64,000 bases of DNA from a virus: IMG/VR virus record IMGVR_UViG_3300037247_000961, positions 1 through 64,000 of that record; one strand, 5' to 3'. A program made the translations under genes and the position numbers. The notes beneath the pieces were generated by a model. The model worked only from the letters and a program-made list of their open reading frames with translations, searched no databases and was not told the DNA's origin. Position 1 is the stretch's first letter. Each line of letters begins with the position of its first letter. Shown here one piece after another: positions 22,481-48,303 of the stretch.

Positions 22481-23173
22481 TCAAAATAATCCTTTCTGAA
22501 CAGGTTTCGCTTCGACGACGAACATGTCCGGCTTCTTGCGGGCCTCCTTCAAACGTGAACATGCTATATCGAAATACTTTGAATCGATTTCTATTCCAAT
22601 AAAACAACGTCCCATGTTAACACAGGCAACCCCTGTCGATCCACTGCCCATGAAGGGATCAACCACAACCTTCTCATTTGGAATGAAGGTAAGGCACCAT
22701 TCCATAATTTCAATAGGCTTTTGCGTCGGATGAAAATTCCCATCTCGCCGCGATAAAGCTTTCCCTCGCGAATAGGTCTTGATACGCATGGCCTTCATCT
22801 GATTGGTCCACGCGACTTCCCCATCGGCTAACGAAAAATCCCGTTGCCCCTTGTCCCAAATTAACCATCGCATCGTTGGTGGCAAATAATCAGTGAAGTA
22901 ATTTCCCCCCCAAATAATTTGGAGATCACTCTGCTCTAGCATTAAATCAAAGATTTTTTGATCTGGGCGCTCTATGTCCCAACTGCTCTCGCCGTAATAC
23001 TTCCAGCCAAAGCTGCCCTTATGTTTGGCACGCGCCTCATCGGCGCCGATCCCATAGGGAGGGTCAGTGACTATCGCATCTATGTGCCCGAGGGCCGGGA
23101 GAATTTTCAGATTATCTCCTAGATAAATCGTGGAAGCCCCAATAACAACCCGCTTGATCCATGGATCGGTCAT
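22481..23173 (-). CDS. DNA amino-methyltransferase (beta class, DPPY)
   Basis: TDPPY, HPTQKP, DPFMGSGST. Confidence 0.92.
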   Translation of the reverse strand: MTDPWIKRVVIGASTIYLGDNLKILPALGHIDAIVTDPPYGIGADEARAKHKGSFGWKYYGESSWDIERPDQKIFDLMLEQSDLQIIWGGNYFTDYLPPTMRWLIWDKGQRDFSLADGEVAWTNQMKAMRIKTYSRGKALSRRDGNFHPTQKPIEIMEWCLTFIPNEKVVVDPFMGSGSTGVACVNMGRCFIGIEIDSKYFDIACSRLKEARKKPDMFVVEAKPVQKGLF

Positions 23174-24045
23174 AACTTGAAGCCCTCCTGAACAGGCTTG
23201 GTGTATGAAAAATCCAGTGCGCCTTGCCGGTTGGCCTTTTCAATGTTTGTACAGGCCAAATCGAAGTATTTCGGGTCCAGCTCGATCCCGATAAATTTAC
23301 GTTCCATACGGACGCATGCTACTCCCGTAGCCCCGCCTCCCATGAAAGGGTCAATGACAACGTCACCCGGCGCTGTATGGACAGATAAGAATTTCTGCAC
23401 CAACTCCGGAGGCTTGTCGTTGGGGTGTACCTCCCCATAGCGTCTAGGCTTGGAAAATGAAACGATGTTCGGCATACTGCCTGGATTAGTGGACGAGCCC
23501 CCACCGGGCCACGCAATTTTAGATCCCTCCCGCATGCCCACAATGATAAGCTCGTGCTGCCGGCGGTAACGCCATCCGGTGCCGGGATTCTTCTTGTCCC
23601 AAATCACCATATGAAAAAAGGTCATTCCCTTTTCGTTCATGCGGTCGCTGATCCAGGTATAAGATGGATCACCTTCAGCGCCCCCGCCCATTGAGCAATA
23701 GCATGCCGCGGAGAAATCCTTCTTGAGAAGCCGTGCCGCATGGATCAAAGTGCCATCGATCACGTGGCGCATGGCTGCCTTATCATCGTTCTCAATCGCC
23801 GCTTGGGCTTGAATGTCACCTTTGCGCGTGCTTGTGCCATCGGTGAACGGTAGCGAATAGCCCCTGGTCGAGTTCAGCGTAGCGAATCCCTTAGCGTTGT
23901 TCTCGTTGCCATACGGCGGGTCTGTCCAGACCATATCCACGGATTCATCCGGCAAGCCGGCCATGACTTCCAAAGAGTCCCCCAGGTATAGCGTGCAATC
24001 TCCTATGACTTTTTGCATGTCAACCGCCTTCATTTGGGCTTTCAT
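23170..24045 (-). CDS. DNA amino-methyltransferase (beta class, DPPY)
   Basis: TDPPY, HPNDKP, DPFMGGGAT. Confidence 0.92.
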   Translation of the reverse strand: MKAQMKAVDMQKVIGDCTLYLGDSLEVMAGLPDESVDMVWTDPPYGNENNAKGFATLNSTRGYSLPFTDGTSTRKGDIQAQAAIENDDKAAMRHVIDGTLIHAARLLKKDFSAACYCSMGGGAEGDPSYTWISDRMNEKGMTFFHMVIWDKKNPGTGWRYRRQHELIIVGMREGSKIAWPGGGSSTNPGSMPNIVSFSKPRRYGEVHPNDKPPELVQKFLSVHTAPGDVVIDPFMGGGATGVACVRMERKFIGIELDPKYFDLACTNIEKANRQGALDFSYTKPVQEGFKL

Positions 24046-26778: not shown

Positions 26779-27173
26779 GTGATTAGACCCTCTTTCTTTA
26801 TACCATTGGTCCAGCGCGCGCGCGCGACCTCATATAAACCCTTGCGAGTCAAAAAACCGACATAATTCTTTGCATCACGGCCCGTAAATAGAAGCCATTC
26901 CCGTTGGACTTGGAGAAGCAACCAAGCATTACCCCCGGCCATGTAACGCTTCTTGAGCCATCGCCTCTGGGCAACGGTGAAATGGTCTAAAGTGACCGGA
27001 GTATCTTCTCCCTTGGGCCACGCTCGGCGCCACTTTAACTCAATCCATCCTTCAATGTAATTAACGTCCGGGCATCCCATCACACCGACGCGGTTTTCAA
27101 CTGGGATGGCATGTAGGGGCTTGAGCAGGCGAATGATCTTGGCGCGTTGTGTGCTTTCACTCACGATGCACAA
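26724..27173 (-). CDS. PD-(D/E)XK nuclease (resolvase/VRR-NUC-like)
   Basis: GCPD...WIELK...QRRW. Confidence 0.75.
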   Translation of the reverse strand: MCIVSESTQRAKIIRLLKPLHAIPVENRVGVMGCPDVNYIEGWIELKWRRAWPKGEDTPVTLDHFTVAQRRWLKKRYMAGGNAWLLLQVQREWLLFTGRDAKNYVGFLTRKGLYEVARARWTNGIKKEGLITCLQRDWDHWDCCPVVNA

Positions 27174-27603
27174 CCGTTATCTTCACACCACAATCATCAA
27201 GGATGCGCTTCGCCCGTGCGACGTTCATCTTATGCTCAGCGGTGAGTGTCCGTTCCGAATGGTCTGACCATACTACCTCGGACAAACCCCAAGACGCAAT
27301 ATGTTTCGCACATTCTTTGCACGGCGGGCGTGTCAAGAAAATAGTATAACCTTCGATGTCCTCGGCCGCATGTTTGATGGCGTTCATCTCAGCATGGATC
27401 ACACGGTCATATTTTTCCGCGCGGTCCTCATACCACTCGACTCGGTCCTCCATGCTTTTGGGGAATCCGTTGTAACCTTCCGAGCAGACGGTTTTGTTAT
27501 GGCGAATGATGACTGCGCCACACTTCGTCGACGGATCGCGAGAACGTATAGCGACAACAGCCGCCTTGTGAAGTTGCCACTCATTGTATCCGGGTCTCAT
27601 CAA
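27157..27603 (-). CDS. dCMP deaminase
   Basis: SRDPSTKCGA, GYNG, HAEMN, PCKEC. Confidence 0.92.
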   Translation of the reverse strand: MMRPGYNEWQLHKAAVVAIRSRDPSTKCGAVIIRHNKTVCSEGYNGFPKSMEDRVEWYEDRAEKYDRVIHAEMNAIKHAAEDIEGYTIFLTRPPCKECAKHIASWGLSEVVWSDHSERTLTAEHKMNVARAKRILDDCGVKITVVHRE

Positions 27604-28889
27604 TTTACCTCCGCAAACATACCAGCGTCCATCTGTATTCGCTTTCTAGCCATGTCCGCATATTCCGGGTTCAACTCAATCAGGATGGCACTGCGCTTGA
27701 GCCGGTCGGCAACCAGCCCCGTGGTCCCGGCTCCACCGAAGGGATCAAGCACGGTGCAGGGCACCTCTGCCAAGCCGCAGTCGCATGATGGGCTCCAGCC
27801 GACTATCTGCGTTTTGTAGCGATCACCAGCTTGTGTGCGGTCGCCGCCGTCTCGGTCTCGTGTTTTACCACGATCAAAAGCACTGCCCTTAAGATCATCG
27901 CGCAACTCGGTTGTTCTCTCCACGTCTCGCATCCACAGCGCCCCGCACTTCGGACAGCAACCTTTCTCACTCGTGCCCGCCTTGATACAGGGCTCGATCA
28001 GCGCCGGGGGGAAAGTGGCAAAGTGGGCACCAGGGAAAGGTTGCGTGGCCACGGTCCAAACATTGCGTATGTTGCGACCTAACTTCTCCTGCCGCATAAG
28101 TTTCTCGTGTTGATTATTAAGTGTCTTTTTATGTGACCGATTACCTGTTAATGTATCCTTAGGTCCACCTGTCTGGTTCTCAAAGTTGGGTTGGCTTAGG
28201 CGCGCAATCGAAACATCACTATAGGGCTCTTTCACAGCTTCAACGTCGTAGTAATACCGCTGCGACTTCGCCAATAGATATATCTTCTCGTGGCTTGACG
28301 TAGGTCGGTCAGTGACACTCTCGGGCATGGGATTCGGCTTGTGCCAAATAATCTCCGAGCGCAGCCACCAACCGTCCGCTTGCAAGGCCAGTGCCACACG
28401 GGCAGGCATCATGCAAAGGTCTTTTTCTTTAAAAGTGTCATTTCTTGTTCGTTCCAATACCGACAATCCTCGATTGGCGGATTCACAATCCAGCCCCCTA
28501 GCATTTCCAAGTGACGCATCAGCATTGTCTTTTTGCCAAGCACGAGAACGCTGTCCCCTGCCGTAAATATCTCCAAGATAGGCATGTTCCTTTCCTCCAT
28601 GTCCGCTACCGCCCTTTGCAGGATTACGGTAATAACTATCCCCAAGATTGAGCCAAACCGTTCCATCCTTCCGCAATACTCTACGCACTTCCTGAAACAC
28701 ATTGACTAATGCATCAATATAATCTTGAGGTATTTGTTCAAGGCCTATCTGCCCATCCACACCATAATCCCGTAAACCCCAATAAGGCGGACTTGTGACG
28801 ACACAATGCACAGACTCATCCGCCAAACTAGAAAGCTTCTCTTTGGCATCTCCGACAAGAATTTTTACGCTCATTTTGCTTCGCCCCAA
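27600..28889 (-). CDS. DNA amino-methyltransferase (beta class, SPPY, likely N4-C) with zinc-ribbon insert
   Basis: VTSPPY, HFATFP, CPKC...CDC, DPFGGAGTT. Confidence 0.92.
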   Translation of the reverse strand: MGRSKMSVKILVGDAKEKLSSLADESVHCVVTSPPYWGLRDYGVDGQIGLEQIPQDYIDALVNVFQEVRRVLRKDGTVWLNLGDSYYRNPAKGGSGHGGKEHAYLGDIYGRGQRSRAWQKDNADASLGNARGLDCESANRGLSVLERTRNDTFKEKDLCMMPARVALALQADGWWLRSEIIWHKPNPMPESVTDRPTSSHEKIYLLAKSQRYYYDVEAVKEPYSDVSIARLSQPNFENQTGGPKDTLTGNRSHKKTLNNQHEKLMRQEKLGRNIRNVWTVATQPFPGAHFATFPPALIEPCIKAGTSEKGCCPKCGALWMRDVERTTELRDDLKGSAFDRGKTRDRDGGDRTQAGDRYKTQIVGWSPSCDCGLAEVPCTVLDPFGGAGTTGLVADRLKRSAILIELNPEYADMARKRIQMDAGMFAEVN

Positions 28890-30865
28890 CTTGGACCGAT
28901 TTCCACGTCCACCTTGAACGGGACAAGTGCGGGTATAGTGTTCCGCATAATGCCGGCTATATGTTCACCCTCGGCGCGATCCGCAACAGAGTTGCCCGCT
29001 TCATCATGCACCTGGAGCATCAACCAATAGCCAGCAGCATCGATTTCCACGATGGCTTTCTTCATTTGATCTGCGGCAGAACCTTGAATCACTCGGTTAA
29101 AAGACTTATGCGTCCATACATACTTGTTCCCTTCCTTGACAAAATGAAGGTGCCGGCCAAGGATCGTAGTCACATAACCTCGTTTGTTAGCACGCTTCTT
29201 TGCAGCATTGGCAACTTTGCGAATGAACGGTGCATGCTCATCAAACTTGTCAAGGATGACCTGCCCTTCCACGCCAGCGGCGCGCCATACGAATCCTTCA
29301 CCAAGTTCATCATGCAAAGCATCGGCCTCTCCCTGAGTTTCGAAATGCTGAATTTTACGATTATCCCAGTTTCCCCAGGCACATGCCCAACGGGTAGAAA
29401 GTTTCAGTTGGTCACAAAGATGTGCTCCACCTTCACCATAACACAGCCCAAGGTAAATCGTTTTGGCGGGGTAGCGGTCCAAGCCTGTCAATTTTGCCAT
29501 CATGGCATGATTATCGAGCGTCGGGTCGTCGTGGTAGCGTTGCGCCATTTCCTTGGCACCAGGGAAGTCCATCAGCGCTGCAAAGTGTGTCGTCCAACGA
29601 GGCTCCTGTTGGCTGTAATCTGCAACACACCACTGTGCACCTTCCTCCGGGAGGAATATTTTTCGCCACTCGCCGGCAATCTCCGGATCTTTCTCCGGGT
29701 TGGGCTGTTGCTGCAAGTTAGGGTTCGTGGCTGAAATGCGGCCGTAGCGAACGCCCTTCTGTTCACCTGTTTCCGACTCTCGGGCAACCGGGTTAAAGGT
29801 GCAGTGGATTCGGCCATTTGTCATATGAGACCGCATCGATGCAGCGAAGGTCGTGCGCAGCTTGTTCACTTTGCGTGCACGGCCCAAGGCCTTAGTCACG
29901 GGATGATCCACCATCCCGAACACTTCCTGGGACACGCTCTTTTTACCGTTGCTTGTCGTGGGCAACTCGATCCCAATATACTCCAGCGCTGGAACCAAGG
30001 ACTCCGCCTTCCAGACGTTGCCTACTTCGATGTTAACGCCGGTCGCCGTCCGCACATAGTCCAGGGCCTTGGCCTCTTGCTTAAGTGACCAATCCTCAAT
30101 TTGTGATAGCTTATCCTGATCAATCCGAACGCCGCGGCGCCGCATGCGAACGAGTACGGGTAAGACGCGACTTTCCAGATCGTAAATACCCCAGAGATCT
30201 TTCTCTTCTATCTGGCGCTCCTGTTGTCTTAGGATAAGCAGGGGCTGCCGTGCGTCGGCCTCGGCGTATTTCCCAACGTAGCGGGCCGGCAGGCGCCACA
30301 GGCCCCCTTTGGGGTCTACCCCATAGGCCGAAGCCGCCTCCCTGAGTTTCGTTTCGTCTTTGCCAGGCCGCCCGTGACGTTCGGCAATGTTCTGGAGGCT
30401 GTAGGAGTTGTGCAGTTCATAAATCAAAGGATCAGCAATTTGAATATCCCTAAAGAATCGTATGGCAGGGAAATTGATTCCAGCTTCCCAAAAATAGTCC
30501 AGGTCATAGCTCAAATTCATTCCTACAATGTCACCGTCGAACGTGGCTCCTTGTTCCCGCATGTACCCGAGCACTTGCTCCTTGTCCAAGTTGTCGCCGC
30601 CTTCGTGAGCGAAGGGGAGATAGTAGGAAGGCCCATCCTCAATGGCGAAGCTAATGCCCACCATGTAGGCGCCGCGGCGTACCCCAACCCCCAATTCCTT
30701 GAGATGGCGGTCGTTGGTTTCACTATCAATGCCAACGCGCTTTGCGCCCTTCCACGATGGCAAATCGCTCATGGACGGAAGCTTCCAATTGCACTCTGGC
30801 TCAATCAAAGGCAACTGCAGAGGCTTAAGCTGCATCCCAATGCGGCCATCGAGGACGTCAGGCAT
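28871..30865 (-). CDS. Family A DNA polymerase with 3'-5' exonuclease (Leu at the E. coli Pol I 762 position)
   Basis: DSET exo I, DYSQQEPR motif A, KTIYLGLCYG motif B, VHDE motif C; start reassigned using GAGG RBS. Confidence 0.95.
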   Translation of the reverse strand: MPDVLDGRIGMQLKPLQLPLIEPECNWKLPSMSDLPSWKGAKRVGIDSETNDRHLKELGVGVRRGAYMVGISFAIEDGPSYYLPFAHEGGDNLDKEQVLGYMREQGATFDGDIVGMNLSYDLDYFWEAGINFPAIRFFRDIQIADPLIYELHNSYSLQNIAERHGRPGKDETKLREAASAYGVDPKGGLWRLPARYVGKYAEADARQPLLILRQQERQIEEKDLWGIYDLESRVLPVLVRMRRRGVRIDQDKLSQIEDWSLKQEAKALDYVRTATGVNIEVGNVWKAESLVPALEYIGIELPTTSNGKKSVSQEVFGMVDHPVTKALGRARKVNKLRTTFAASMRSHMTNGRIHCTFNPVARESETGEQKGVRYGRISATNPNLQQQPNPEKDPEIAGEWRKIFLPEEGAQWCVADYSQQEPRWTTHFAALMDFPGAKEMAQRYHDDPTLDNHAMMAKLTGLDRYPAKTIYLGLCYGEGGAHLCDQLKLSTRWACAWGNWDNRKIQHFETQGEADALHDELGEGFVWRAAGVEGQVILDKFDEHAPFIRKVANAAKKRANKRGYVTTILGRHLHFVKEGNKYVWTHKSFNRVIQGSAADQMKKAIVEIDAAGYWLMLQVHDEAGNSVADRAEGEHIAGIMRNTIPALVPFKVDVEIGPSWGEAK

Positions 30866-30881
30866 AATGGTTCCTCTCGGG

Positions 30882-31370
30882 TTATGCGTCCACAATGCGA
30901 ATAGATCGAGGTTGATCCGGCGTGTAAGTGATAAAACCACGCTCAGTCAGACGTCTGACGAAATTAGTGACGCATCCCACGTATTTTAATCCAAGACCCT
31001 TGGCAATCTCAGCGTAACTTGGCGAATAGCCATTGATATTCCGGTAATTGATAATGAATGCTAGGGCCTTCTTTTGTCGTTTCGTAATTCCACCGTTCCG
31101 TCGCGAATCAGGATGGCGCATATCATAGGCCATCCTGGAGCACTCAATGCAGTAGTTAGTTGAAACCGTCCGCTTCGCCATATGACCATACAAGCAAGGA
31201 TCACCGGTAGAATACTGCTTCAATCCACGGTCGCGGGCCTCTTTCCGGCAAGTTGCCGCACGCTTCCGATGGTCACGGGCTTCCTTCCAACGATTTAACT
31301 CATGTTTTTGATGCACTTTCTTTATGTTGGTTAGCCCTTGGGCGTATTCGACGGAAGTGTTTTTGCTCAT
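30882..31370 (-). CDS. Zinc-binding domain plus LexA-type HTH protein
   Basis: CLYGH...CIEC; ITKRQKKAL.FI...GYSPSYAEIA. Confidence 0.7.
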   Translation of the reverse strand: MSKNTSVEYAQGLTNIKKVHQKHELNRWKEARDHRKRAATCRKEARDRGLKQYSTGDPCLYGHMAKRTVSTNYCIECSRMAYDMRHPDSRRNGGITKRQKKALAFIINYRNINGYSPSYAEIAKGLGLKYVGCVTNFVRRLTERGFITYTPDQPRSIRIVDA

Positions 31371-32061: not shown

Positions 32062-32475
32062 TCATATGCCGGCGCTATCATCATTGATCAAAGATTGAAT
32101 CGCCGCGCGGCAACCAAACAAGTCTTCAACACACGACCAACGAGAAATCACGGTTACCGCAAACTCCTCCGTTTTGTCCAAGTCCTGCATGACACTGAAA
32201 TACTGTATATCGCTAAGCGATGCACATCCCTTGGGTACGCGGCGATGGTTCTTGTGCAAATCGATCAACTTATCCACAAAATGGATTGCTTTCTCCAAGT
32301 CCATCATGCCGTTGCCCTTATCGCGCCATCGGCACATATACTTGATGATGCACATTTCCAGCCCACCAAGGCCATGCTTTTCCGTAAAATCCCAGACCTG
32401 ATACCCCGCTAGATAATGATCCCCGCCAATTTGCATAGCGTTTGGATTGGCCCCGCGCCCTTCATCCTGGCTCAT
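32062..32475 (-). CDS. DUF3310-like protein
   Basis: QIGGDHY, IKYMCRWRDKG, DLEKAIHF. Confidence 0.8.
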   Translation of the reverse strand: MSQDEGRGANPNAMQIGGDHYLAGYQVWDFTEKHGLGGLEMCIIKYMCRWRDKGNGMMDLEKAIHFVDKLIDLHKNHRRVPKGCASLSDIQYFSVMQDLDKTEEFAVTVISRWSCVEDLFGCRAAIQSLINDDSAGI

Positions 32476-32489
32476 TGATGGACTCCTGG

Positions 32490-33023
32490 TTAGTTCCGGT
32501 TTTCAGGCAGCCGCGTCCATTTGTACTTGGCATAAAACTTGATGCACGGCTCGGGAAAGTTCAAAGCTCGACGCTCAATGGATTGTGTTAAGTATAGCAG
32601 ACTTTTTTCACAATGTCGATTCCCAAATGCAATTTGCTCCTGGCACCACACCCAAGACTCCAGAAGATCGATGGCGTTAAGCCAGTGGAAATCTTCATCC
32701 GTGAGAGATTCAAATCCTTCATACATCCCCCACGTTTGAAGCGCAGCCATGTTGGCTTGATCGTAGGCTTCAAAAAGAGATTCATGGTACTGAGGCGCAG
32801 GCCGCGGCATATCGCCAACCCATCGCTCAGCTCCATCGTGCCAAAGCAAAGCCTTGATCAAAGGGACTGAGGGACTTGGGTGCAAGACGAGCAACATGCT
32901 CACTGCGTCATAGCTATGCTTGCCCACGGTGTATTCGCCCATGTGGGGCACGACATGGAACCGCCGAACGTTGCCGGCTTCCCTGGTAGCCTTGACGCGG
33001 TCTACCTCGCTAAGTTCGATCAT
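32490..33023 (-). CDS. HD-domain phosphohydrolase (YfbR-like 5'-deoxynucleotidase fold)
   Basis: VRRFH, TVGKHS, HDGAERWVGD, D.LE. Confidence 0.85.
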   Translation of the reverse strand: MIELSEVDRVKATREAGNVRRFHVVPHMGEYTVGKHSYDAVSMLLVLHPSPSVPLIKALLWHDGAERWVGDMPRPAPQYHESLFEAYDQANMAALQTWGMYEGFESLTDEDFHWLNAIDLLESWVWCQEQIAFGNRHCEKSLLYLTQSIERRALNFPEPCIKFYAKYKWTRLPENRN

Positions 33024-34014
33024 CGATTCTCCTTAAAAGCCATTCGTTCGCGGCACCTTGCCAATCGGAGGCCCGTACTAGTGATACAGTATCCAGCGCC
33101 TTTCGGGCGCCGTCCATATTGAGGCCGGCTGTCGATTTGTATTGATCCCAAACTTGCCACATGGGCGCCGCCACGTGCCGGAAGAAAGGATCACGCATTC
33201 CCATGACCGGCCCTTCATCGAGGAACATGGACAACTCTCCAAGCCAGGCATCCGAATCGATGGTCGCAATAGGGACAAGGACCGCTAGAGGAGGATAAGG
33301 ATTGCTTGGAGGAAGCTTGTGAAATGAGTTCTTGATTAAATCCAATACCTTGGTTTCCGCCCCAAGGCAATTGGCTACAATTGTCATGCGCCCAATAGGG
33401 ACACTGATCGCCTTAGCAATGAACTCTTGCATCATGGAAAACACGATAGCGTCCAGACGCATGTCGAAGATATCGGCGTCCCTGTATACCACCATCATAT
33501 CCAACCGTTGAGCGTGGTTGATGCTTAGATATAGATGCGTCGCTGCAGGTAGATTCCGGCTTGTACTGCCGAAGTCCTCCCCAGCATCCCACAACGAGAT
33601 CACTGCAGCCTTGTGCCCAGGGTTGTTACGGAGCATATGAACCACGGATTTCAGTTGATCAATAGTGCCAGCCTGGTAATCCATGCCAGGATCGAAGTGC
33701 GCCCGCATGCGTTGTCCATATGCCCCATGAAGTATCTTACCATCATCACTCGTGCCCCCTTGATAGCCATCGAACTTAGCCAGAAACGTAACGTCATTGC
33801 GGCCACCGAGCACCCATAGACTTGTGAACAGTGCGACGAACGGATTCAGGTCATACTCAGTCCCACGTGACAATCGCTCCATGGGCTCCGTCATCATGAG
33901 GGCCACGGGACTGGTTATCTCGGTCATGTGCCTCTTGGGCTGTCCCTCATCGAAAAGCAATTCCAGACCCTGGGGTATGACCTCGTGCATGTTGCGGCCA
34001 TAGATCATTTGCAT
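33010..34014 (-). CDS. Thymidylate synthase-fold dUMP hydroxymethylase homologue, apparently catalytically dead
   Basis: NPF..LW.LGGRND, SDDG..HGAYG.R, DQL, LWD scaffold retained; PC replaced by PA, RSND by RDAD, HxY absent. Confidence 0.8.
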   Translation of the reverse strand: MQMIYGRNMHEVIPQGLELLFDEGQPKRHMTEITSPVALMMTEPMERLSRGTEYDLNPFVALFTSLWVLGGRNDVTFLAKFDGYQGGTSDDGKILHGAYGQRMRAHFDPGMDYQAGTIDQLKSVVHMLRNNPGHKAAVISLWDAGEDFGSTSRNLPAATHLYLSINHAQRLDMMVVYRDADIFDMRLDAIVFSMMQEFIAKAISVPIGRMTIVANCLGAETKVLDLIKNSFHKLPPSNPYPPLAVLVPIATIDSDAWLGELSMFLDEGPVMGMRDPFFRHVAAPMWQVWDQYKSTAGLNMDGARKALDTVSLVRASDWQGAANEWLLRRIDDRT

Positions 34015-34578
34015 TATTGACGCTCCTTCCATTCTTCAAACTTCCGTGGATTGCTCAGCGGCTTCCATTTCCACCACCTCAGCGAGCATCGTCTGCAACA
34101 GAACCACCTCAGCACGGTCACCGCGGTCCAAAGGATAGCCGGCCTTTTCCAACAACGACCAGTGATCAAGCTTGGCCACGATCCTTTCGTGCAGGCCCCT
34201 GCGTTTGATAGCATCAACACTGGATTGGTGTTTGGCCCGCGCATCTTCGCGGAGTTCGACTTGCTCGTCGGTCAATTCCGGGAATACCTCGTCCGGGCTA
34301 ATCGATTCTTTTGGTCTATCCATTGGAACTTCCTACCTCAAGCTGCCCATGCTCGACCAACTCCGCGCGGATGATGTCGCGCAGTTCCAATAGGTGCGCC
34401 AGTTGCTCGCGCTCGTTATCGGCAAACTCGAAGCCATCCTTGCCTGCCCATGCTTTTCGTTCCCAGTCATGCATCGAGGCGATCTTGTTCAACACGCGCT
34501 CGTATGCCAAGCGGCGATGGACGGCGCGGACGCCGTCCATGTGCTTTTGATGAATCAACATGCGGTCGGATAGCTTTG

Positions 34579-35154
34579 TCATGAAGCGATCTGGTACACG
34601 TTGCCACGGCCCTCGACCCGGCTCTTGGTCACCGGCAAGCCAAGGCGCTTCTTCACATCCCGACTGATGGCCCCGCGTGCCGTGTGATTAAGCCAGTTCA
34701 ATGCCTCGGCAATCTCCTTGATCGATGCGCCCTCGGGCCGCTTGAGCAAGGCGATAAGAGCCGCTTGCTTAGAGCCGTCACGCACCTTGCTCTTAGGCTC
34801 CTTACCCAAGGGCGCCAAAGGCTCCTTGCCGGTGGTAGGCACCACCGGCGCTGCCCCCGGTACTGGTTCCGGCATAGGCAGGCCTTTCATCGAGTCCGGC
34901 AGATCGTCGTTGAACTCCTCCATATCGTCGAAGGCGACATCGTACTTGAGCAGCAAGTCGATCACTGCTTTGATGCCCTTGGCCTTGTTCTGGAACATCT
35001 TGATGCGACGGCCCAAATCCAAATTGGAAACGAGAAGGTTGCGCAACTCGACCAGCTTCTCCGCGGCCAAAGTGTCCAGAAAGATAGCATCTTCTGGGGC
35101 ACCCACGCTGCCCTCAACGATGTACTTCTTACCTAAGAATTCGACGGTTTTCAT
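34579..35154 (-). CDS. DUF3489-like winged-helix protein
   Basis: SKQAALIALLKRPEGASIKEIAEALNWLNHTARGAIS...KKRLGL; AGGAG RBS before MKTVEF. Confidence 0.8.
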   Translation of the reverse strand: MKTVEFLGKKYIVEGSVGAPEDAIFLDTLAAEKLVELRNLLVSNLDLGRRIKMFQNKAKGIKAVIDLLLKYDVAFDDMEEFNDDLPDSMKGLPMPEPVPGAAPVVPTTGKEPLAPLGKEPKSKVRDGSKQAALIALLKRPEGASIKEIAEALNWLNHTARGAISRDVKKRLGLPVTKSRVEGRGNVYQIAS

Positions 35155-35200
35155 GGCTTCTGCTCCTTGACCAGAAAGGGTTGAATCAATGATGTTATCC

Positions 35201-35229
35201 ATTATCCCATCGCCATCAAGAAATGTCAA
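35201..35229 (-). promoter_or_regulatory. sigma70-like promoter TTGACA-N17-GATAAT
   Basis: Perfect -35 with 17-nt spacer. Confidence 0.7.
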
Positions 35230-35473
35230 CACCTTATTTTAAGGTGAAATCTTCACCTTCCCGGACAAATTTCAAATTCGCCTAATTGCATGCCGGCCTT
35301 ACACCAACGAGCCCAATCGAGCATGGACTGGCGTTCGTCATATGCCAACCGTCCCCGCTTCCAACTCAGGTCCGTAAACTGCCTAATGATCTGCGTATCA
35401 TTTTCCTCGGCAAACAGGATTCCATGATAGGCCAGCGTAACCCCTATGATGATAACTGACGCAGCTTGACTCA

Positions 35474-37291
35474 TCAATCGCATTCTTTGCGCCCCGTAAC
35501 TTCATCGATGTGGCACATGGTGGTTGCCACCAAGTCCGTTGGGCTGGGCAACGAATCATCCCCTTTCACAGTAAAAATGCCAGTGCGCATCCCGTCAATG
35601 CGAAATGTGGTCAACCCCTTTGCCCCACGGCGCCAGGCCTCGGTGTACAGTTCCTTGAACTCATCCCACTTCACAGAGCCAGGTACATTGCAAGTTTTAG
35701 ATACGGCACTGTCAATGTGGGTTTGCGCCGTACAAAGGACGTCAAGATGCTCTTGTACCGTAACGAACTCGCTGATCTTGCCGCGAACCCCAAACACGCG
35801 AAGGCCATAATCTTCAACGTCCTCGTGAATAACTCCCTCCGCCGTATTGATCTCACGATTAAAGGAATAGGCAAAAACTGGCTCCAAGCCACTCGACACG
35901 TTGTCAGCACAAAGGCTAATTGTGCCAGTTGGCGCAATGCTTGTGAGATGGCTATTGCGAATGCCGTAGCGCGCAATCCCTTCCCGGACATCATCGTCGA
36001 GCGTAGCTATAAATGCGCCCGACAAATATGAATCTTTGTCAAATAGCTTAAATGACCCTTTCTCACGGGCTAAATCAATCGATGCCAAATAGCATTCCCG
36101 AGTTAGCCGTTGCAGAATCATGTTTTCCAATCGAAGGAAATCCGGCGAACCATAGCCACCTGGAATCATGGCCTCGATACAGTTGGCCATTCCAGTTACA
36201 CCAATCCCCATACGACGCTTCCTCTGGGCTTCCTTCTTTTGTTCATATGTAGGATATTTGGCCTGGTCAATCACATTATCCATGGCACGGACGACACAGG
36301 GAATGTCTTTACCAAAACGATCCCAATCGAATATGCGACGCATCCCTTCCGTCTTGACATATTTGACAAGATTCATGCTGCCCAAGAGGCAAGCACCGTG
36401 AGGCGGAAGTGGTTGCTCAGCACAGGGATTCGTCGCCGCGATTTTTTCGCAATACCATAAATTATTCATGCGATTGATCGTATCAATGAACAACACCCCA
36501 GGTTCACCCCAATCCCAGGTTGAACGCATGACCATTTCCCAAAGCGCACATGGATCGATGTGGCGGTATACCCGACCATCAAACCGCAACGGGAAGGGTT
36601 TGCCCTCGGCAAGACACTCCATGAACTCATCAGTCACCGCAATGGACATATTGAACGCGGTTAAAGGCAATGTTTTTTGCAGCGCCTTCCATGCCCGCAG
36701 GCGGACGTTGGGGTCTTTGATCTGTTCAACCAACTCCCAAAGCACGCGCTGCTCTGGCGACGGGTGCTTGGCATTGATAAACATTTCGATGTCCGGGTGA
36801 TCAATTCTCAGAACTGCCATTTGTGCGCCGCGTCTATGGCCGGCGGAGGCAATCGTCTTACACAGGCTGTTATGGATCGACATGAATGAGACTGGCCCAG
36901 ACGCATAAGTATGCTGTGTTCTGATCAAATCCTTATAAGGACGCAACGTTGAAAAGTCGTAACCAATACCCCCTCCCATGCGCATCGTCGCCGCAGCCTC
37001 GGCCAACCGACCCATGATGGAACCGTTGCCATCGACCATGCTGTCCTCGATAATGCCAGACACAAAACAATTGTATGGTGTCACTTCCCAAAGCGCGCCA
37101 ACTGCGGCCTGTATTCGACCAGCGGGGAGGAAGAATTGATTGAGAAGGAGTTGGCTAAAATGTTTAAAATGGTCGTCGTCGTCTTTGAGCGCGGCGGCAA
37201 CTCGGTAGCCATAATCCCGAAACGTCTCTTGTGGTCCACGGTACTTTTCACCGTGCATAGCATCACTGAATGCGAGTTGTGGGCCTTGCAT
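35474..37291 (-). CDS. nrdJ: Class II (B12-dependent) ribonucleotide reductase
   Basis: NCFV, TNPCAEQPL, IAPTGTIS, C-terminal Cys pair; no beta-subunit gene nearby. Confidence 0.9.
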   Translation of the reverse strand: MQGPQLAFSDAMHGEKYRGPQETFRDYGYRVAAALKDDDDHFKHFSQLLLNQFFLPAGRIQAAVGALWEVTPYNCFVSGIIEDSMVDGNGSIMGRLAEAAATMRMGGGIGYDFSTLRPYKDLIRTQHTYASGPVSFMSIHNSLCKTIASAGHRRGAQMAVLRIDHPDIEMFINAKHPSPEQRVLWELVEQIKDPNVRLRAWKALQKTLPLTAFNMSIAVTDEFMECLAEGKPFPLRFDGRVYRHIDPCALWEMVMRSTWDWGEPGVLFIDTINRMNNLWYCEKIAATNPCAEQPLPPHGACLLGSMNLVKYVKTEGMRRIFDWDRFGKDIPCVVRAMDNVIDQAKYPTYEQKKEAQRKRRMGIGVTGMANCIEAMIPGGYGSPDFLRLENMILQRLTRECYLASIDLAREKGSFKLFDKDSYLSGAFIATLDDDVREGIARYGIRNSHLTSIAPTGTISLCADNVSSGLEPVFAYSFNREINTAEGVIHEDVEDYGLRVFGVRGKISEFVTVQEHLDVLCTAQTHIDSAVSKTCNVPGSVKWDEFKELYTEAWRRGAKGLTTFRIDGMRTGIFTVKGDDSLPSPTDLVATTMCHIDEVTGRKECD

Positions 37292-37579: not shown

Positions 37580-37655
37580 TGGTAGCGGGGGCCGGATTCG
37601 AACCGGCGACCTTCAGAATATGAATCTGACGAGCTACCAACTGCTCTACCCCGCA
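37580..37655 (-). tRNA. tRNA-Met(CAT), initiator-like body with altered anticodon stem
   Basis: TGCGGGGTAGAGCAG.TGGTAGCTCG, 1:72 mismatch, TCAGA-TTCATAT-TCTGA, CCA. Confidence 0.92.
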
Positions 37656-37999
37656 TTAAAATGGTCTTTCCAATGTTCTTTCCGATGGCAATTTGAGCAT
37701 AACACTTCACATTTTGCAATCTCTTTCAAGATTCTAGCCCACGAGATGTCTCGGATCATTTTGCCAGAAATTCCAAATTCCTTCTTGCTTGGGTCTAAAT
37801 GATGAAAGTCTAAACAAGCGGGATGATCTTCTGGGCAACGATTGCAAGATAATTGAGCCTTCAATTCTTTAAATCGAATAATCCTCTTTCGTTTATTTTC
37901 TGTAGTCCTTGCTCGATGCACCTTCTTATTTTTTGGATACCAAATCTCCCTCATGTATTTTGCATGGTACTCTTTACGTTTGATAGGGTCTTTAATCAT
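37646..37999 (-). CDS. HNH endonuclease
   Basis: CNRC...LDFHH...EIAKCEVLCSNCHRKEH. Confidence 0.85.
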   Translation of the reverse strand: MIKDPIKRKEYHAKYMREIWYPKNKKVHRARTTENKRKRIIRFKELKAQLSCNRCPEDHPACLDFHHLDPSKKEFGISGKMIRDISWARILKEIAKCEVLCSNCHRKEHWKDHFNAG

Positions 38000-44487: not shown

Positions 44488-45282
44488 TTAGGTCATTTCG
44501 TAGTGAGGCGCGTCAATGAAGGCCGGCTTGTCCCTGGCCCGCTTGCGCTCCGCATAGGCCTGTACCAGCTTTTCAGGGGCCTGGAGGGGGGTCTCGTTAT
44601 AGAGGGGTACCCAAGCGCCCCCCCAACGTAATAGGCCCCCACAGGCGAACGAGGCCCGCCGTACGGCCTCCATGATCTTGTAGCAGGCCAGTAATTCCCA
44701 TCGGGCACGTCCATTGATCCATGGAACCAGGTCCACGGCATGGCTAAAGCCATCGCTCTGAATCAGGTGCTTGGACTTCATGGTCTGGGATACCCTGGTA
44801 CGTACGTATTCTGCCTGTTCCTCGCGAGTGCGCACGCCATCGGTCACAGTGAAATCTTGTGCCGTGATTCCGATGGCATGGTGAACGATCCTCACAAGAT
44901 CAGGATGAACGCCTTCCAGGTTTTTGAGGCTGCTTTTGCCCAGCTTGTAGGAGCCAATCTCCACGTCGTCCAGCAACGGGTCTGTTGCCTCTTGCTTCGC
45001 ACCGTGTGGGCGTGTGGGCGCCTTGGGCGCGCGGGCTGGCGCACCATGGTCCTCCATGCAATGGACCGCGATGCCTGCCATCTTTCGCATCACGTCGAGG
45101 GCTTTGGTGTCGCCGGGGTTGAGGGTCCAGTCCCGAATCAGTTGGGCCTGATAATGTGCCATCATTGTGGTATAATCGCCCACGGAATGAGGCTCGGGAG
45201 TCGGCTCCATTCGGTTGGGGCCGAGGCTGTCCTGGTAACGGCGCTCGCCGTCGATCAGGTTGTAAACATCTTTGCGTTTCAT
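44488..45282 (-). CDS. M15-family peptidase endolysin with fused N-terminal alpha-helical domain
   Basis: LEGVHPDL, GVRT..Q, SKH, HAVD, WGG.W, DAPHYE. Confidence 0.85.
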   Translation of the reverse strand: MKRKDVYNLIDGERRYQDSLGPNRMEPTPEPHSVGDYTTMMAHYQAQLIRDWTLNPGDTKALDVMRKMAGIAVHCMEDHGAPARAPKAPTRPHGAKQEATDPLLDDVEIGSYKLGKSSLKNLEGVHPDLVRIVHHAIGITAQDFTVTDGVRTREEQAEYVRTRVSQTMKSKHLIQSDGFSHAVDLVPWINGRARWELLACYKIMEAVRRASFACGGLLRWGGAWVPLYNETPLQAPEKLVQAYAERKRARDKPAFIDAPHYEMT

Positions 45283-45729: not shown

Positions 45730-47370
45730 TTACGCTCTCCATCTCCCATTCCACATTGTGTATATGGCTCGTTTGCCTGTGCAATAGGTCACGATATGGG
45801 AAGGTGACCACGACGACGGCCCTTTATTATACCCTTGATCCATATCGCCACTCAAGCCTGAAGTATAAGTGCCCTCCAGAATTCCGGCGGAGTGTTCGTG
45901 GGCTCGATTAGCCTTGCGTCCCATGCGCGCCATATTAGAAGCACTTCCGCGGCTACCGTTAGGCCCAAGATGTCCGTGCATTCCGTGCTCGATGTCGAGC
46001 AACACAAAACTCTCATCCTCGTTCAGGAATCGAATTGGCACAGCGCTTCCATCTTGCATCGTGTCGAATTCTCGGAGTATTGCCCAACGGAGTAGATTGT
46101 GAGGTTCATCCGGATTATCCCGAATCGCACGGTAAACCTCAATCTGGGCTTCCAAGAAGTAAATGGCATTGACAGGATCATTCTTATAATCACCGATACG
46201 TAGCCACTCTTTGAAAAACCCATCGTGGTTTGAATTCACTACTACAGTCTGGCACCACTCCCGGCTTGATTCTTTCAGGAATCGTGCCACATTATTGACT
46301 TCTGTCTGAACAGAGTCGTGGCCCTGGATATAAGCCAAAAAACGGTCATGAATCAGATGCTTCTTGAGTGTGTGACCATTGCGCGCCCGGAAGTCCATAA
46401 CGTCGTGCATCATTTGATACTCTGGGCGCAGGACATCCATCATGCCCCCCTTGCCCCATGCCAACTCTGCAACTTCGGGGTCAAGTGTAGCTTCATGGAT
46501 ATCGCCCCATGTAATTGACTTGGCGCGGTGCCTATGGGTAATTTTGATGCCATCGATTTTCAGGTCCATGTCGCAGATGACACCCTTGTTCGTGGAAATC
46601 AACTGGCGCACAAACCAATCACCTCGGCAATTTACTTCGACGATTAGGCCTCCATATACGTGATGGAAATCCGCCTTGAGGCCTGCCTTCTTGGCGATAT
46701 AGTTCCGCTTGGTCACGGTGCCCGTCGTATAGGTGAACTTCGTCGGTTCATTCTTGCCACTAGCAACCGATGACATGTGCATCTTGACGTGGGGGAAAAT
46801 CGAACTATGCCTTCCGGTGTAAACCTCAAGTCCTTGTAACGGCTTTACCGCGGTCGGTTCGATGTTCATTTCCCCGCAGAAGATTAGTCCCGGGGCCAGC
46901 TCAACTTGGTCATCGCAGATGTAAGGCTCAATGATAGGATCATACCAGACAGGTGCAAGGTCGGACGCTGTTGGTTCTTGGCCCCGCTTGACGGCCTTAT
47001 TACCGAAACGTGCCTTGTTATAGGTGAACGTCGCCACCATCAACCTCGACGTCTCGACGCGCTTTTCTTTGCGCTTGGAATAGGTTATCAAAGAATCCCA
47101 GGCTTTCGAAAAAACTTTGGTGTTATTCTGAGCGGAAGTTAAAATGTAACGATTGATTTTGCCTTTTGAGGGCAACGGGAGGGAGGTTTGCTCGAACGGC
47201 GCAACGCGGCCCGCGAACAAGGGCTTGTCGTCATAGATACCAGCGGCTCTGATGCAGTCCCGAATCGTGCCGCGGACGTGACCGGTTTCCAATGCCGTGC
47301 CATATATCGTTCCGATGCGTTGATAAACTTCGACGATGCGCGCAGATTGCGCGTCTGTCAATGCGGCCAT
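45730..47370 (-). CDS. T5 A1-like calcineurin-type metallophosphoesterase with N-terminal HTH
   Basis: TSAQNNT, GDIH, HD, SNHD, HGHLGPNGSRGS, HEHS, YNKGPSSW. Confidence 0.7.
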   Translation of the reverse strand: MAALTDAQSARIVEVYQRIGTIYGTALETGHVRGTIRDCIRAAGIYDDKPLFAGRVAPFEQTSLPLPSKGKINRYILTSAQNNTKVFSKAWDSLITYSKRKEKRVETSRLMVATFTYNKARFGNKAVKRGQEPTASDLAPVWYDPIIEPYICDDQVELAPGLIFCGEMNIEPTAVKPLQGLEVYTGRHSSIFPHVKMHMSSVASGKNEPTKFTYTTGTVTKRNYIAKKAGLKADFHHVYGGLIVEVNCRGDWFVRQLISTNKGVICDMDLKIDGIKITHRHRAKSITWGDIHEATLDPEVAELAWGKGGMMDVLRPEYQMMHDVMDFRARNGHTLKKHLIHDRFLAYIQGHDSVQTEVNNVARFLKESSREWCQTVVVNSNHDGFFKEWLRIGDYKNDPVNAIYFLEAQIEVYRAIRDNPDEPHNLLRWAILREFDTMQDGSAVPIRFLNEDESFVLLDIEHGMHGHLGPNGSRGSASNMARMGRKANRAHEHSAGILEGTYTSGLSGDMDQGYNKGPSSWSPSHIVTYCTGKRAIYTMWNGRWRA

Positions 47371-47383
47371 CCTTAACCCCTTC

Positions 47384-47650
47384 TTAGAATCCGAATTTGG
47401 ATTTAATGCCGAGACCTATCGCCGTCGCTGTAACGCCGATGATAATAACGACGATGGTCATTAAGCTTTTGTCTTGTATGCGCTCAATACGCAAACGCCA
47501 CTCTCTTAAGTGTAGCATATCCTTCTGGAATTCTAAAGGATTTTCTGGATCGATGCCGTGAGAAATAAGCGTCCGTTCCACGGCCTGGCAAGCAGCATCG
47601 TAGGCGATCTCACGCAAAAGGGCTTCGACTTCGGGAGTTACGTCCTTCAT
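47384..47650 (-). CDS. Single-TM holin-like protein
   Basis: C-terminal TM; located in the lysis-like block. Confidence 0.5.
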   Translation of the reverse strand: MKDVTPEVEALLREIAYDAACQAVERTLISHGIDPENPLEFQKDMLHLREWRLRIERIQDKSLMTIVVIIIGVTATAIGLGIKSKFGF

Positions 47651-48303
47651 GGTACGACCCTTATATACTTGGCGACACTGTGACGAGACACGGGGCCAGG
47701 CCAGCCTCCACTGTTGATCTTAACCTGGTTCTTCGGGTGATCAAAGCCAGGAATCGGAGGCCAAAAGGGGGCAAAGTCATAGCGATTCGTAAAGCGGAAA
47801 ACAGGGCAAGCGATGCTCGCTATAGCTTCATCGCTCAAACATTTGGGGGCACCATAGGTGATAAGCCCAGCCAACTTATGATCATCAATCCCGCCTGAGG
47901 CAACCCATGAGGCATAAAGTGTTGCAAGGCAACCACCCATGGAATGACCAGTGACGATTAATGGAATCGGAGTTGGAATACGCTCTGCAAAATCTCTGGC
48001 AGGCCCACGGATATAGGAGAAGTGTCGAGCATAGCCACTGTGGGCTTTACCTTTTCCAATCCAGTCCCTTGGGACACCGAAATTGGAAATAAGGTCTCGA
48101 AGTTTTGCTCGTGATACCTCGGTGCCTCGGAATACGAGATATGCGTGTGTAGGCCCAAGGACGAGCATGCCCTGTGAGCCCATGATATCGAAGGGCTCAC
48201 AAACCATGTCCATATCCATGGTATCCAAGCCAAGATTGACGTGGGGCCATTCTTCATAGATTAAGCCTGAGAGAATGGCCCCAGTCTTGAAGTTTGTCAT
48301 CAC
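47647..48303 (-). CDS. Lipase class 3 (alpha/beta hydrolase)
   Basis: VFRGT, HSGY, GHSMGG, TYGAP, D.AP, H. Confidence 0.9.
   Translation of the reverse strand: MMTNFKTGAILSGLIYEEWPHVNLGLDTMDMDMVCEPFDIMGSQGMLVLGPTHAYLVFRGTEVSRAKLRDLISNFGVPRDWIGKGKAHSGYARHFSYIRGPARDFAERIPTPIPLIVTGHSMGGCLATLYASWVASGGIDDHKLAGLITYGAPKCLSDEAIASIACPVFRFTNRYDFAPFWPPIPGFDHPKNQVKINSGGWPGPVSRHSVAKYIRVVP

Follow-up and report, generated by a model that had tools for sequence, protein, structure and literature searches.

A dUMP hydroxymethylase homologue without catalytic residues is probably retained as a pseudoenzyme in a phage lineage

Thymidine hypermodification is a major counter-defence of phages, and dUMP (deoxyuridine monophosphate) hydroxymethylase carries out its committed step. 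In Pseudomonas phage M6 and Stenotrophomonas phage Sonora, which belong to the Mesyanzhinovviridae, the slot between the ribonucleotide reductase (RNR) gene and the gene for the thymidylate synthase (TS)-type hydroxymethylase encodes the amino-acid:DNA transferase ADDT (aGPT-Pplase, PF18724), a 5-hydroxymethyldeoxyuridine (5-hmdU) DNA kinase (PF18748, PF18723), Nmad5, a pyridoxal phosphate (PLP) decarboxylase and a radical-SAM isomerase; the functions of these hypermodification genes and the logic of the precursor pathway have been described (PMC8989533). In E. coli-type TS numbering, where the nucleophile is Cys146, roles have been assigned to Glu58, to Asn177 (uracil recognition), to an acidic residue at the Leu143 position (the hydroxymethylase signature) and to His207/Tyr209, and flavin-linked 5-hydroxy-dCMP synthases are known that keep Cys146 and carry the exchange D169N (PMC13326640). 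The CMP 5-hydroxymethylase MilA has a C-terminal helical domain, remote from the active site, to which no function has been assigned (PMC5175136). Here we analyse a stretch of 64,000 nucleotides (the window), positions 1 to 64,000 of the IMG/VR virus record IMGVR_UViG_3300037247_000961, which encodes a TS-fold protein without the nucleophilic cysteine and without most other residues of the active site. We read it, with a probability of roughly 0.55, as a pseudoenzyme that descends from an M6/YuA-type dUMP hydroxymethylase and would be kept for a non-catalytic role.

A homologue search among 5.8 billion proteins returned two groups separated by a gap in identity, a tight group of 22 full-length homologues (48–72% identity) and a second group at 38% identity or less. 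Residues were compared in an alignment with 28 cysteine-bearing homologues from the second group, in which the classic TS residues are all invariant: the SRNG loop (Arg21), Glu58 of FESLW, the RR pair (Arg126/127), the D-x-PCN motif with its acidic residue at the Leu143 position and Cys146, RSND (Arg166, Ser167, Asp169), Asn177 and HxY (His207/Tyr209). The window protein has LPAAT in place of FPCNT, and in a HMMER alignment to L. casei TS the cysteine of LPPCH falls on the second alanine of LPAAT. The Cys-less state is common to all 22 close homologues, where PCN has become P-x-A (x being A, S, R, P, E, F or T) and the alanine that follows the former cysteine is fixed in 22/22. The Arg21 loop is deleted throughout this clade. 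Glu58 is replaced by threonine in the window protein and by threonine or another residue across the clade; the RR pair reads KA in the window protein and HxY reads GxE, both being variable among the relatives; RSND has become RDAD, with Asn168 lost and position 167 variable in the clade. Asn177 is aspartate in all 22 members, and the aspartate at the Leu143 position is asparagine in 20 of them. What is retained is the Tyr94 equivalent, an aspartate at position 169 (in the window protein and 16/22 clade members) and Arg166 (20/22), the sole one of the four phosphate-binding arginines left. Of the residues expected in an active dUMP hydroxymethylase, neither the nucleophile, nor the full set of phosphate-binding arginines, nor Glu58, Asn177, the acid at the Leu143 position and the His207/Tyr209 pair are present.

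The original prediction, which described loss of the nucleophilic cysteine and loss or alteration of the arginine loop, the conserved glutamate, the RR pair, RSND and HxY, holds for each of these elements in the 28-homologue alignment. Catalytic residues that had merely been relocated, an outcome that would have spoken against it, are ruled out, because no column of the clade alignment has a conserved cysteine (at most 7 of the 22 members have one at any given column) and three members lack cysteine altogether. Judged from the alignments, the loss is far beyond chance, since the same state is seen in 22 homologues, and the TS-fold protein is predicted to be incapable of TS-type catalysis, of Cys-dependent C5 chemistry and of canonical dUMP binding.

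The predicted fold is intact. The protein scores 36.8 bits against PF00303 (cut-off 24.3), which places it in the TS/pyrimidine hydroxymethylase superfamily, and matches phrog_5131, 'thymidylate synthase', with an expectation value (E) of 1e-60 over residues 7–338. AlphaFold2, run with an input alignment of 50 sequences, gave a model with a mean local confidence (pLDDT) of 92 and a predicted template modelling score (pTM) of 0.92. The best Foldseek match of this model is MilA (5jnh), with a template modelling (TM) score of 0.75 along the entire chain. Many ThyA structures come next, the Foldseek probability being 1.00 for these as for MilA; the alignments to TS structures show 14–19% identity. 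Because of the confidence of the model and the full-chain match to MilA, the protein is taken to be undegraded, with a complete TS fold and an extra C-terminal helical domain as modelled, and the YuA/M6-type scaffold recognized in the original prediction is supported by family and structure searches alike. The same prediction had treated positions 32062–34014 as one full-length open reading frame (ORF). A full-length, intact TS-fold ORF is indeed present, but it makes up only part of this span, which consists of three overlapping or adjacent minus-strand ORFs encoding the TS-fold protein, an HD-domain protein and a DUF3310 protein (Table 1). The open frame of the first extends over 33010–34032; the likely start is the ATG at 34014, giving a product of 334 aa, because a ribosome-binding site (GGAAGGAG) lies 8 nt upstream of it and the resulting N-terminus agrees with those of all homologues (MQxIYGRN).

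We searched 1.84 billion representatives clustered at 50% identity with a profile built from the clade. The whole clade corresponds to one representative (526 bits), and the next match scores 280 bits. Most of the 149 other representatives listed keep each residue (the cysteine in 142, the others in 112–150 each), and nine further Cys-less proteins are found among these 149. Two of the Cys-less representatives, P0058 and P0059, share the derived motifs of the clade, namely DLGLQS, x-A-T and the aspartate at the Asn177 position. A FastTree tree places both with the clade, along with P0066, P0079 and P0123 (support 0.94), a grouping to which long-branch attraction may contribute. P0080 with P0084, P0085, and P0188 fall elsewhere in that tree, outside the clade; they are without the cysteine and the asparagine following it, and most of them retain the arginine and glutamate residues. 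From this placement and the retained residues, P0080/P0084, P0085 and P0188 look like separate, younger losses of catalysis. Among 50,697 phage records there was no close relative of the TS-fold protein, the best being 36% identical, and tblastn searches of cultured phages with P0058 and P0080 found only Cys-bearing homologues (43% identity or less) and no isolate with a Cys-less version. Scans of viral contigs with the single protein, the clade alignment, P0058 and P0059 returned no close relatives, and a scan of genome contigs returned only distant TS matches from Firmicutes. A literature search on phage TS pseudoenzymes, or on TS homologues without the catalytic cysteine, found nothing relevant.

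Selection on the gene was followed in 16 related loci (L015–L030), which a metagenome scan found in three whole-genome shotgun record sets (SDBS, SDBT and SDBV, perhaps from one project). Fifteen of the 16 belong to the Cys-less clade, five of them with long flanks, and L028 bears the cysteine. The ratio of non-synonymous to synonymous substitution rates (dN/dS, Nei–Gojobori, NG86) of the TS-like gene is 0.15–0.28; the pairs with the least saturation give 0.18 at a dS of 0.74 and 0.275 at a dS of 0.83. For the pairs used, PolA (the family A DNA polymerase), RNR and Dda have ratios of 0.04–0.09, mostly 0.04–0.06, and the HD gene has 0.06–0.15, so that constraint on the TS-like gene is 3–5 times more relaxed than that on PolA or RNR. 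All ten loci that span the whole TS-like gene have an intact ORF of 316–338 aa. Contigs with diverged strains were found in four other marine metagenomes, where the 14 differences with the best support in the TS-like gene comprise 9 synonymous and 5 non-synonymous changes; this sample is small and selected. Among active enzymes, those of M6 and Sonora are 65% identical for TS and 72% for PolA, and, measured against PolA, the rate of evolution of the Cys-less gene is about double that of the active gene between these two phages. On these comparisons the TS-like gene is relaxed yet clearly not neutral, and it is under purifying selection.

The same data bear on the possibility that the gene is a decaying relic, whose frame survives through translational coupling to the HD gene or because the gene has not yet had time to disappear. 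The stop of the TS-like gene and the start of the HD gene overlap by 14–23 nt in the window and in every checked relative that carries HD, and within the module conservation is lowest for the TS-like gene, as would suit a relic. However, the dN/dS values reflect constraint on amino acids and not just on the frame; divergence has reached 48% identity without a frameshift or stop in the ten full-length loci; two relatives, L018 and L024, keep the TS-like gene with no HD gene downstream; and the segment 261–290 is almost invariant. We therefore consider decay improbable. Neutral evolution, which would have undermined the claim that the protein was kept as a pseudoenzyme, is not what is observed, and that claim stands: an enzyme homologue has lost its essential catalytic residues, is predicted by AlphaFold2 to fold and is under purifying selection, which is the operational meaning of a pseudoenzyme.

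Where this constraint acts was assessed from the entropy of each alignment column in the Cys-less and the active group, read along the sequence. Twenty-three positions that are invariant or nearly so in the active group have an entropy above 1 bit in the Cys-less group, and all of them are active-site positions. Residues 121–130, 141–150 and especially 251–320 are 0.7–1.7 bits more conserved in the Cys-less than in the active group, the mean difference between the groups being 0.28 bits, and the standout conserved segment of the Cys-less group is LSMFLDEGPVMGMRDPFFRHVAAPMWQVW. Because of this contrast between the groups, the pocket is read as freed from constraint and the C-terminal helical domain as the most constrained part of the protein. 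This distribution also bears on the idea that the TS fold has been reused for Cys-independent chemistry or for nucleotide sensing, at a site comprising the aspartate at the Asn177 position, the asparagine at the Leu143 position, the alanine after the former cysteine, and the retained Arg166 and Tyr94. The conservation of these residues across the clade, from 20 to all 22 members for the first three and Arg166, would suit a new ligand, as would the continued position of the gene beside nucleotide-metabolism genes, and TS-fold enzymes that make 5-hydroxy-dCMP in a flavin-linked reaction show that the fold can support other chemistry (PMC13326640). Those synthases, however, have Cys146 and D169N, while here there is no cysteine and position 169 is mostly aspartate, and membership of the window protein in that group is rejected. 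Most pocket positions vary within the clade, including the Cys position, Ser167, Asp169 and the RR pair, only one of the four phosphate-binding arginines is left, and constraint is strongest in the C-terminal domain, not in the pocket. A neo-functionalised enzyme or ligand binder thus seems unlikely, and a retained pseudoenzyme is the reading that we carry forward.

The surroundings of the gene point to the pathway that was given up. The record from which the window takes the first 64 kb is 94,430 bp long, has a 128-bp direct terminal repeat and is 100% complete by CheckV; its source is most likely a marine sediment metagenome, and the phage is uncultured. The replication module of the phage is collinear with those of M6 and Sonora, with which it also shares an SNF2 helicase, two Pam3 gp33/gp34-like proteins, a Dda-like helicase and a DUF3489 protein. 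The order TS, HD, DUF3310, PolA and dCMP deaminase, noted in the original prediction, matches that of M6 and Sonora. The slot between RNR and the TS-like gene has different contents from theirs (Table 1). As that prediction also held, there is no 5-hmdU kinase or aGPT-Pplase gene: in the complete genome, Pfam hidden Markov models gave no PF18724, PF18723 or PF18748 match at E ≤1, tblastn gave no match to any M6 or Sonora modification protein, and neither a second PF00303 match besides the TS-like gene nor ThyX was found. None of the related Cys-less loci has modification genes of the M6/Sonora type. For comparison we took 38 Cys-bearing loci, 37 from IMG/VR and the metagenome locus L028; in these, modification genes adjoin the TS gene whenever enough of the upstream sequence is covered. 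Among loci with 5 kb or more on that side, modification genes are present in 23/23 Cys-bearing and in 0/6 Cys-less loci (Fisher p 2e-6). Across the loci compared, loss of the cysteine is shown to go together with loss of the whole post-replicative thymidine-hypermodification cassette.

Three ORFs of the window encode methyltransferases of the N6_N4 type, as predicted, and relatives have two to four such genes, with none in the M6 and Sonora stretches that were read. The proposal that hypermodification had been abandoned for methylation holds in its first half, the hypermodification genes being absent from the complete genome, but its second half, replacement by methylation, is only a correlation; the methyltransferase genes fit a changed anti-restriction strategy to that extent.

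The genes on either side of the TS-like gene are otherwise well kept. The phage has kept dCMP deaminase, the HD homologue and the DUF3310 gene, each under stronger constraint than the TS-like gene. The HD protein has an intact H..HD..D motif in the alignment and its own AAGGAG in front of the start at 33023, which lies within the last 14 nt of the TS-fold ORF; its M6 counterpart, CDS0050, scores above the Pfam cut-off for YfbR-like proteins. The DUF3310 gene occurs in all related loci that extend to its position, the PHROGs label for the families that its product matches is 'nucleotide kinase', and we take it to belong to the T7 gp1.7 family. With no active TS and no ThyX in its genome, the lineage must rely on the host thymidylate synthase for dTMP.

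This arrangement raises the question whether nucleotide pools have been rewired, either by a dead subunit that poisons or sequesters a host protein such as ThyA, or by a pathway to DNA containing deoxyuridine instead of thymidine or 5-hmdU; both variants are speculative, and in the latter the retained dCMP deaminase, the 5'-deoxynucleotidase homologue and the DUF3310 kinase-family protein would be the partners. The strong selection on these three genes while the hydroxymethylase step is dead (for the pathway logic, see PMC8989533) and the lack of a phage TS or ThyX would be in keeping with it. Yet no inhibitor of uracil-DNA glycosylase or of dUTPase was identified, the HD gene is dispensable in some relatives, and base composition beyond A, C, G and T is not readable from sequence; for the decoy variant, the low identity to cellular ThyA in the Foldseek alignments (14–19%) makes a heterodimer with the host TS improbable. 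We rate both variants together as very unlikely, and return to a pseudoenzyme with a non-catalytic role.

In that reading the ancestor would have been a dUMP hydroxymethylase of Mesyanzhinovviridae-like phages, whose MilA-like fold and C-terminal helical domain were kept. The active-site positions drift while the protein as a whole, and most of all the C-terminal helical domain, stays constrained, and the role that we infer to have persisted is probably one that active hydroxymethylases also have, centred on this domain. It would most likely be that of a structural or regulatory subunit of the phage machinery for nucleotide precursors and replication, the TS-like gene being in one operon with those for the 5'-deoxynucleotidase homologue, the DUF3310 protein, PolA and dCMP deaminase. 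Work by Wovcha et al. in 1973 and from the Mathews laboratory is reported to have placed the T4 dCMP hydroxymethylase gp42 directly in DNA synthesis and in the complex that synthesizes deoxynucleoside triphosphates (dNTPs). RNA binding, one of the new roles that had been suggested, is not favoured, and an RNA- or DNA-binding role in general is disfavoured by the acidic nature of the clade (mean isoelectric point 5.45).

Several points weigh against this reading. The non-catalytic role is purely an inference. The Cys-less loci form one clade, and the co-occurrence statistic thus represents about one evolutionary loss. The TS-like gene is the fastest-evolving gene of the module, with a dN 2.5–4.5 times that of PolA, which slow decay would also fit. 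The fixed aspartate and alanine and the asparagine in 20/22 members could mean a new ligand rather than an empty pocket. Finally, the relatives without the HD gene (L018:128-1525 and L024:13-1368) have DUF3310 directly after the TS-like gene, which makes an obligate TS–HD pair unlikely; a predicted complex of the HD and TS-like proteins scored 0.00 in a run made without controls and weighs neither way. A further step, which we hold to be possible but doubtful, is that M6-type hydroxymethylases in general have a second, non-catalytic function in replication or dNTP channelling that resides in the C-terminal helical domain, the Cys-less lineages being separation-of-function variants. If so, this clade and several apparently independent lineages that lost the cysteine would retain only the second role after hypermodification had been discarded.

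The features of the locus are collected in Table 1, together with ORFs observed in its neighbourhood. Three relatives have an RtcB-like RNA ligase ORF of 405–415 aa (MPDVHxGxG...GVDIGCGM) between the DUF3489 and TS-like genes, which is absent from the window. In L017 the slot between DUF3489 and the TS-like gene also contains an ORF with the Fic motif HPFTDGNGRSGR, and directly upstream of the TS-like gene lies a short ORF with a QueF-like ELKSLKTYL, which hints at 7-deazaguanine chemistry in this one relative. A small, conserved Cys/His-rich ORF (…CKTFGHWHSFK…CLRCGWxDPCVWT) is found just upstream of the TS-like gene in five relatives and was not seen in the slot of the window. Elsewhere in the window, an HNH endonuclease ORF between RNR and the Dda-like helicase may be a mobile insertion, and a 162-aa protein combines a C-terminal LexA-type DNA-binding domain with an N-terminal Cys-containing segment that recurs as three to four tandem partial matches in L017 and L024. 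A class-3 lipase-domain ORF stands beside a homologue of 'DNA transfer protein', with an endolysin-like ORF nearby.

Table 1 Coordinates of the TS-like gene, its neighbours and other ORFs. Positions are those of the window unless a related locus (L0nn) is named.
Feature	Position	Strand	Evidence or content	Identity to M6-type counterpart	Identity to window protein in related loci
TS-fold protein, putative pseudoenzyme, 334 aa	33010..34014	-	PF00303, phrog_5131, alignments, AlphaFold2, Foldseek, dN/dS	35%	48–67%
HD-domain protein, YfbR-like 5'-deoxynucleotidase homologue	32490..33023	-	phrog_6047 E 2e-49; weak YfbR-like match	47% (CDS0050)	59–85%
DUF3310 protein	32062..32475	-	PF11753 25 bits; phrog_5839 E 1.5e-28; phrog_236 'nucleotide kinase' E 1.6e-15	33%	46–82%; full-length matches 57–74%
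Family A DNA polymerase (PolA)	28871..30940	-	PF00476	53% (tblastn)	81–87%
dCMP deaminase	27157..27603	-	PF00383 E 2e-17; HAE and PCxxC motifs intact	42%	75–90% (among relatives)
RNR large chain	35474..37291	-	PF02867 E 1e-98	61% (tblastn)	83–88%
Primase				44%	
RNR-to-TS slot	34036..35232	-	only DUF3489 protein (34579-35232) and two small ORFs without a family assignment (Pfam, PHROGs)		
N6_N4 DNA methyltransferases, two adjacent ORFs	23170-24045, 22481-23173	-	PF01555 E 1e-28, 5e-22		
Third N6_N4 DNA methyltransferase, 429 aa, between PolA and dCMP deaminase	27600..28889	-	PF01555 E 2e-46		
HNH endonuclease	37646-37999	-	phrog_3106/2255 E 2e-24		
LexA-type protein, 162 aa	30882-31370	-	PF01726 E 4e-11		
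Class-3 lipase-domain ORF	47647-48303	-			
'DNA transfer protein' homologue	45730-47370	-	phrog_1745 E 2e-163		
Endolysin-like ORF	44488-45282				
RtcB-like RNA ligase	L016:8061-9308, L017:8357-9574, L022:8614-9831				
Small Cys/His-rich ORF	L016:9502-9678, L019:6209-6421, L020:9545-9850, L022:8383-8601, L026:1164-1391				
ORF with Fic motif	L017:7555-8103				
Short ORF with QueF-like motif	L017:9602-9997				

We regard the observation itself as real and robust and the pseudoenzyme reading as well supported, the protein being a variant within a known enzyme family. The lineage would then exemplify a pathway that was dismantled while its entry enzyme was kept as a selected, catalytically dead protein. 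This implies that the TS-type fold may do something besides chemistry, with which the old and never settled claim for T4 gp42 agrees, and through the Cys-less clade a possible second function of phage pyrimidine hydroxymethylases becomes accessible to tests. Interaction studies have a concrete target in the C-terminal domain, whose conservation is unusually high. For annotation, it follows that a phage 'thymidylate synthase' or 'hydroxymethylase' call is not evidence of DNA containing 5-hmdU unless it comes with the Cys/Arg/Glu signature and with kinase and transferase genes.

Among known systems, the M6/YuA-like and Sonora dUMP hydroxymethylases (phrog_5131) come closest by sequence, with full-length homology at 35–36% identity (E 1e-48 to 1e-55), equal length, the same C-terminal helical extension and a similar neighbourhood of RNR, TS, HD, DUF3310, PolA, dCMP deaminase and primase. 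Unlike them, the window protein is without the catalytic and most substrate-binding residues, and the adjacent 5-hmdU DNA kinase, amino-acid:DNA transferase, PLP and radical-SAM genes are missing from the window. By structure the best match is MilA of Streptomyces rimofaciens (5jnh, 5b6d, 5jp9; TM 0.75, 17–19% identity), which shares with the window protein the extra C-terminal helical domain, a feature of neither TS nor T4 gp42, and an aspartate at the Asn177 position; MilA, however, is active, depends on its cysteine and serves an antibiotic pathway, whereas the window protein has neither the nucleophile nor the equivalent of the Arg31 loop. With ThyA and T4 gp42 (PF00303) the window clade has in common the core alpha/beta fold, Tyr94, Arg166 and mostly Asp169, but the window protein lacks their Cys146, Glu58, Arg21, Arg126/127, Asn177 (of TS) and the His/Tyr pair. 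The 5-hydroxy-dCMP synthases RB69 gp48 and DLP3 gp80 (PMC13326640) resemble it as phage TS-fold proteins with a non-canonical active site and an aspartate at the Asn177 position, and differ from it in having the cysteine and in residue 169, which is aspartate in the window protein.

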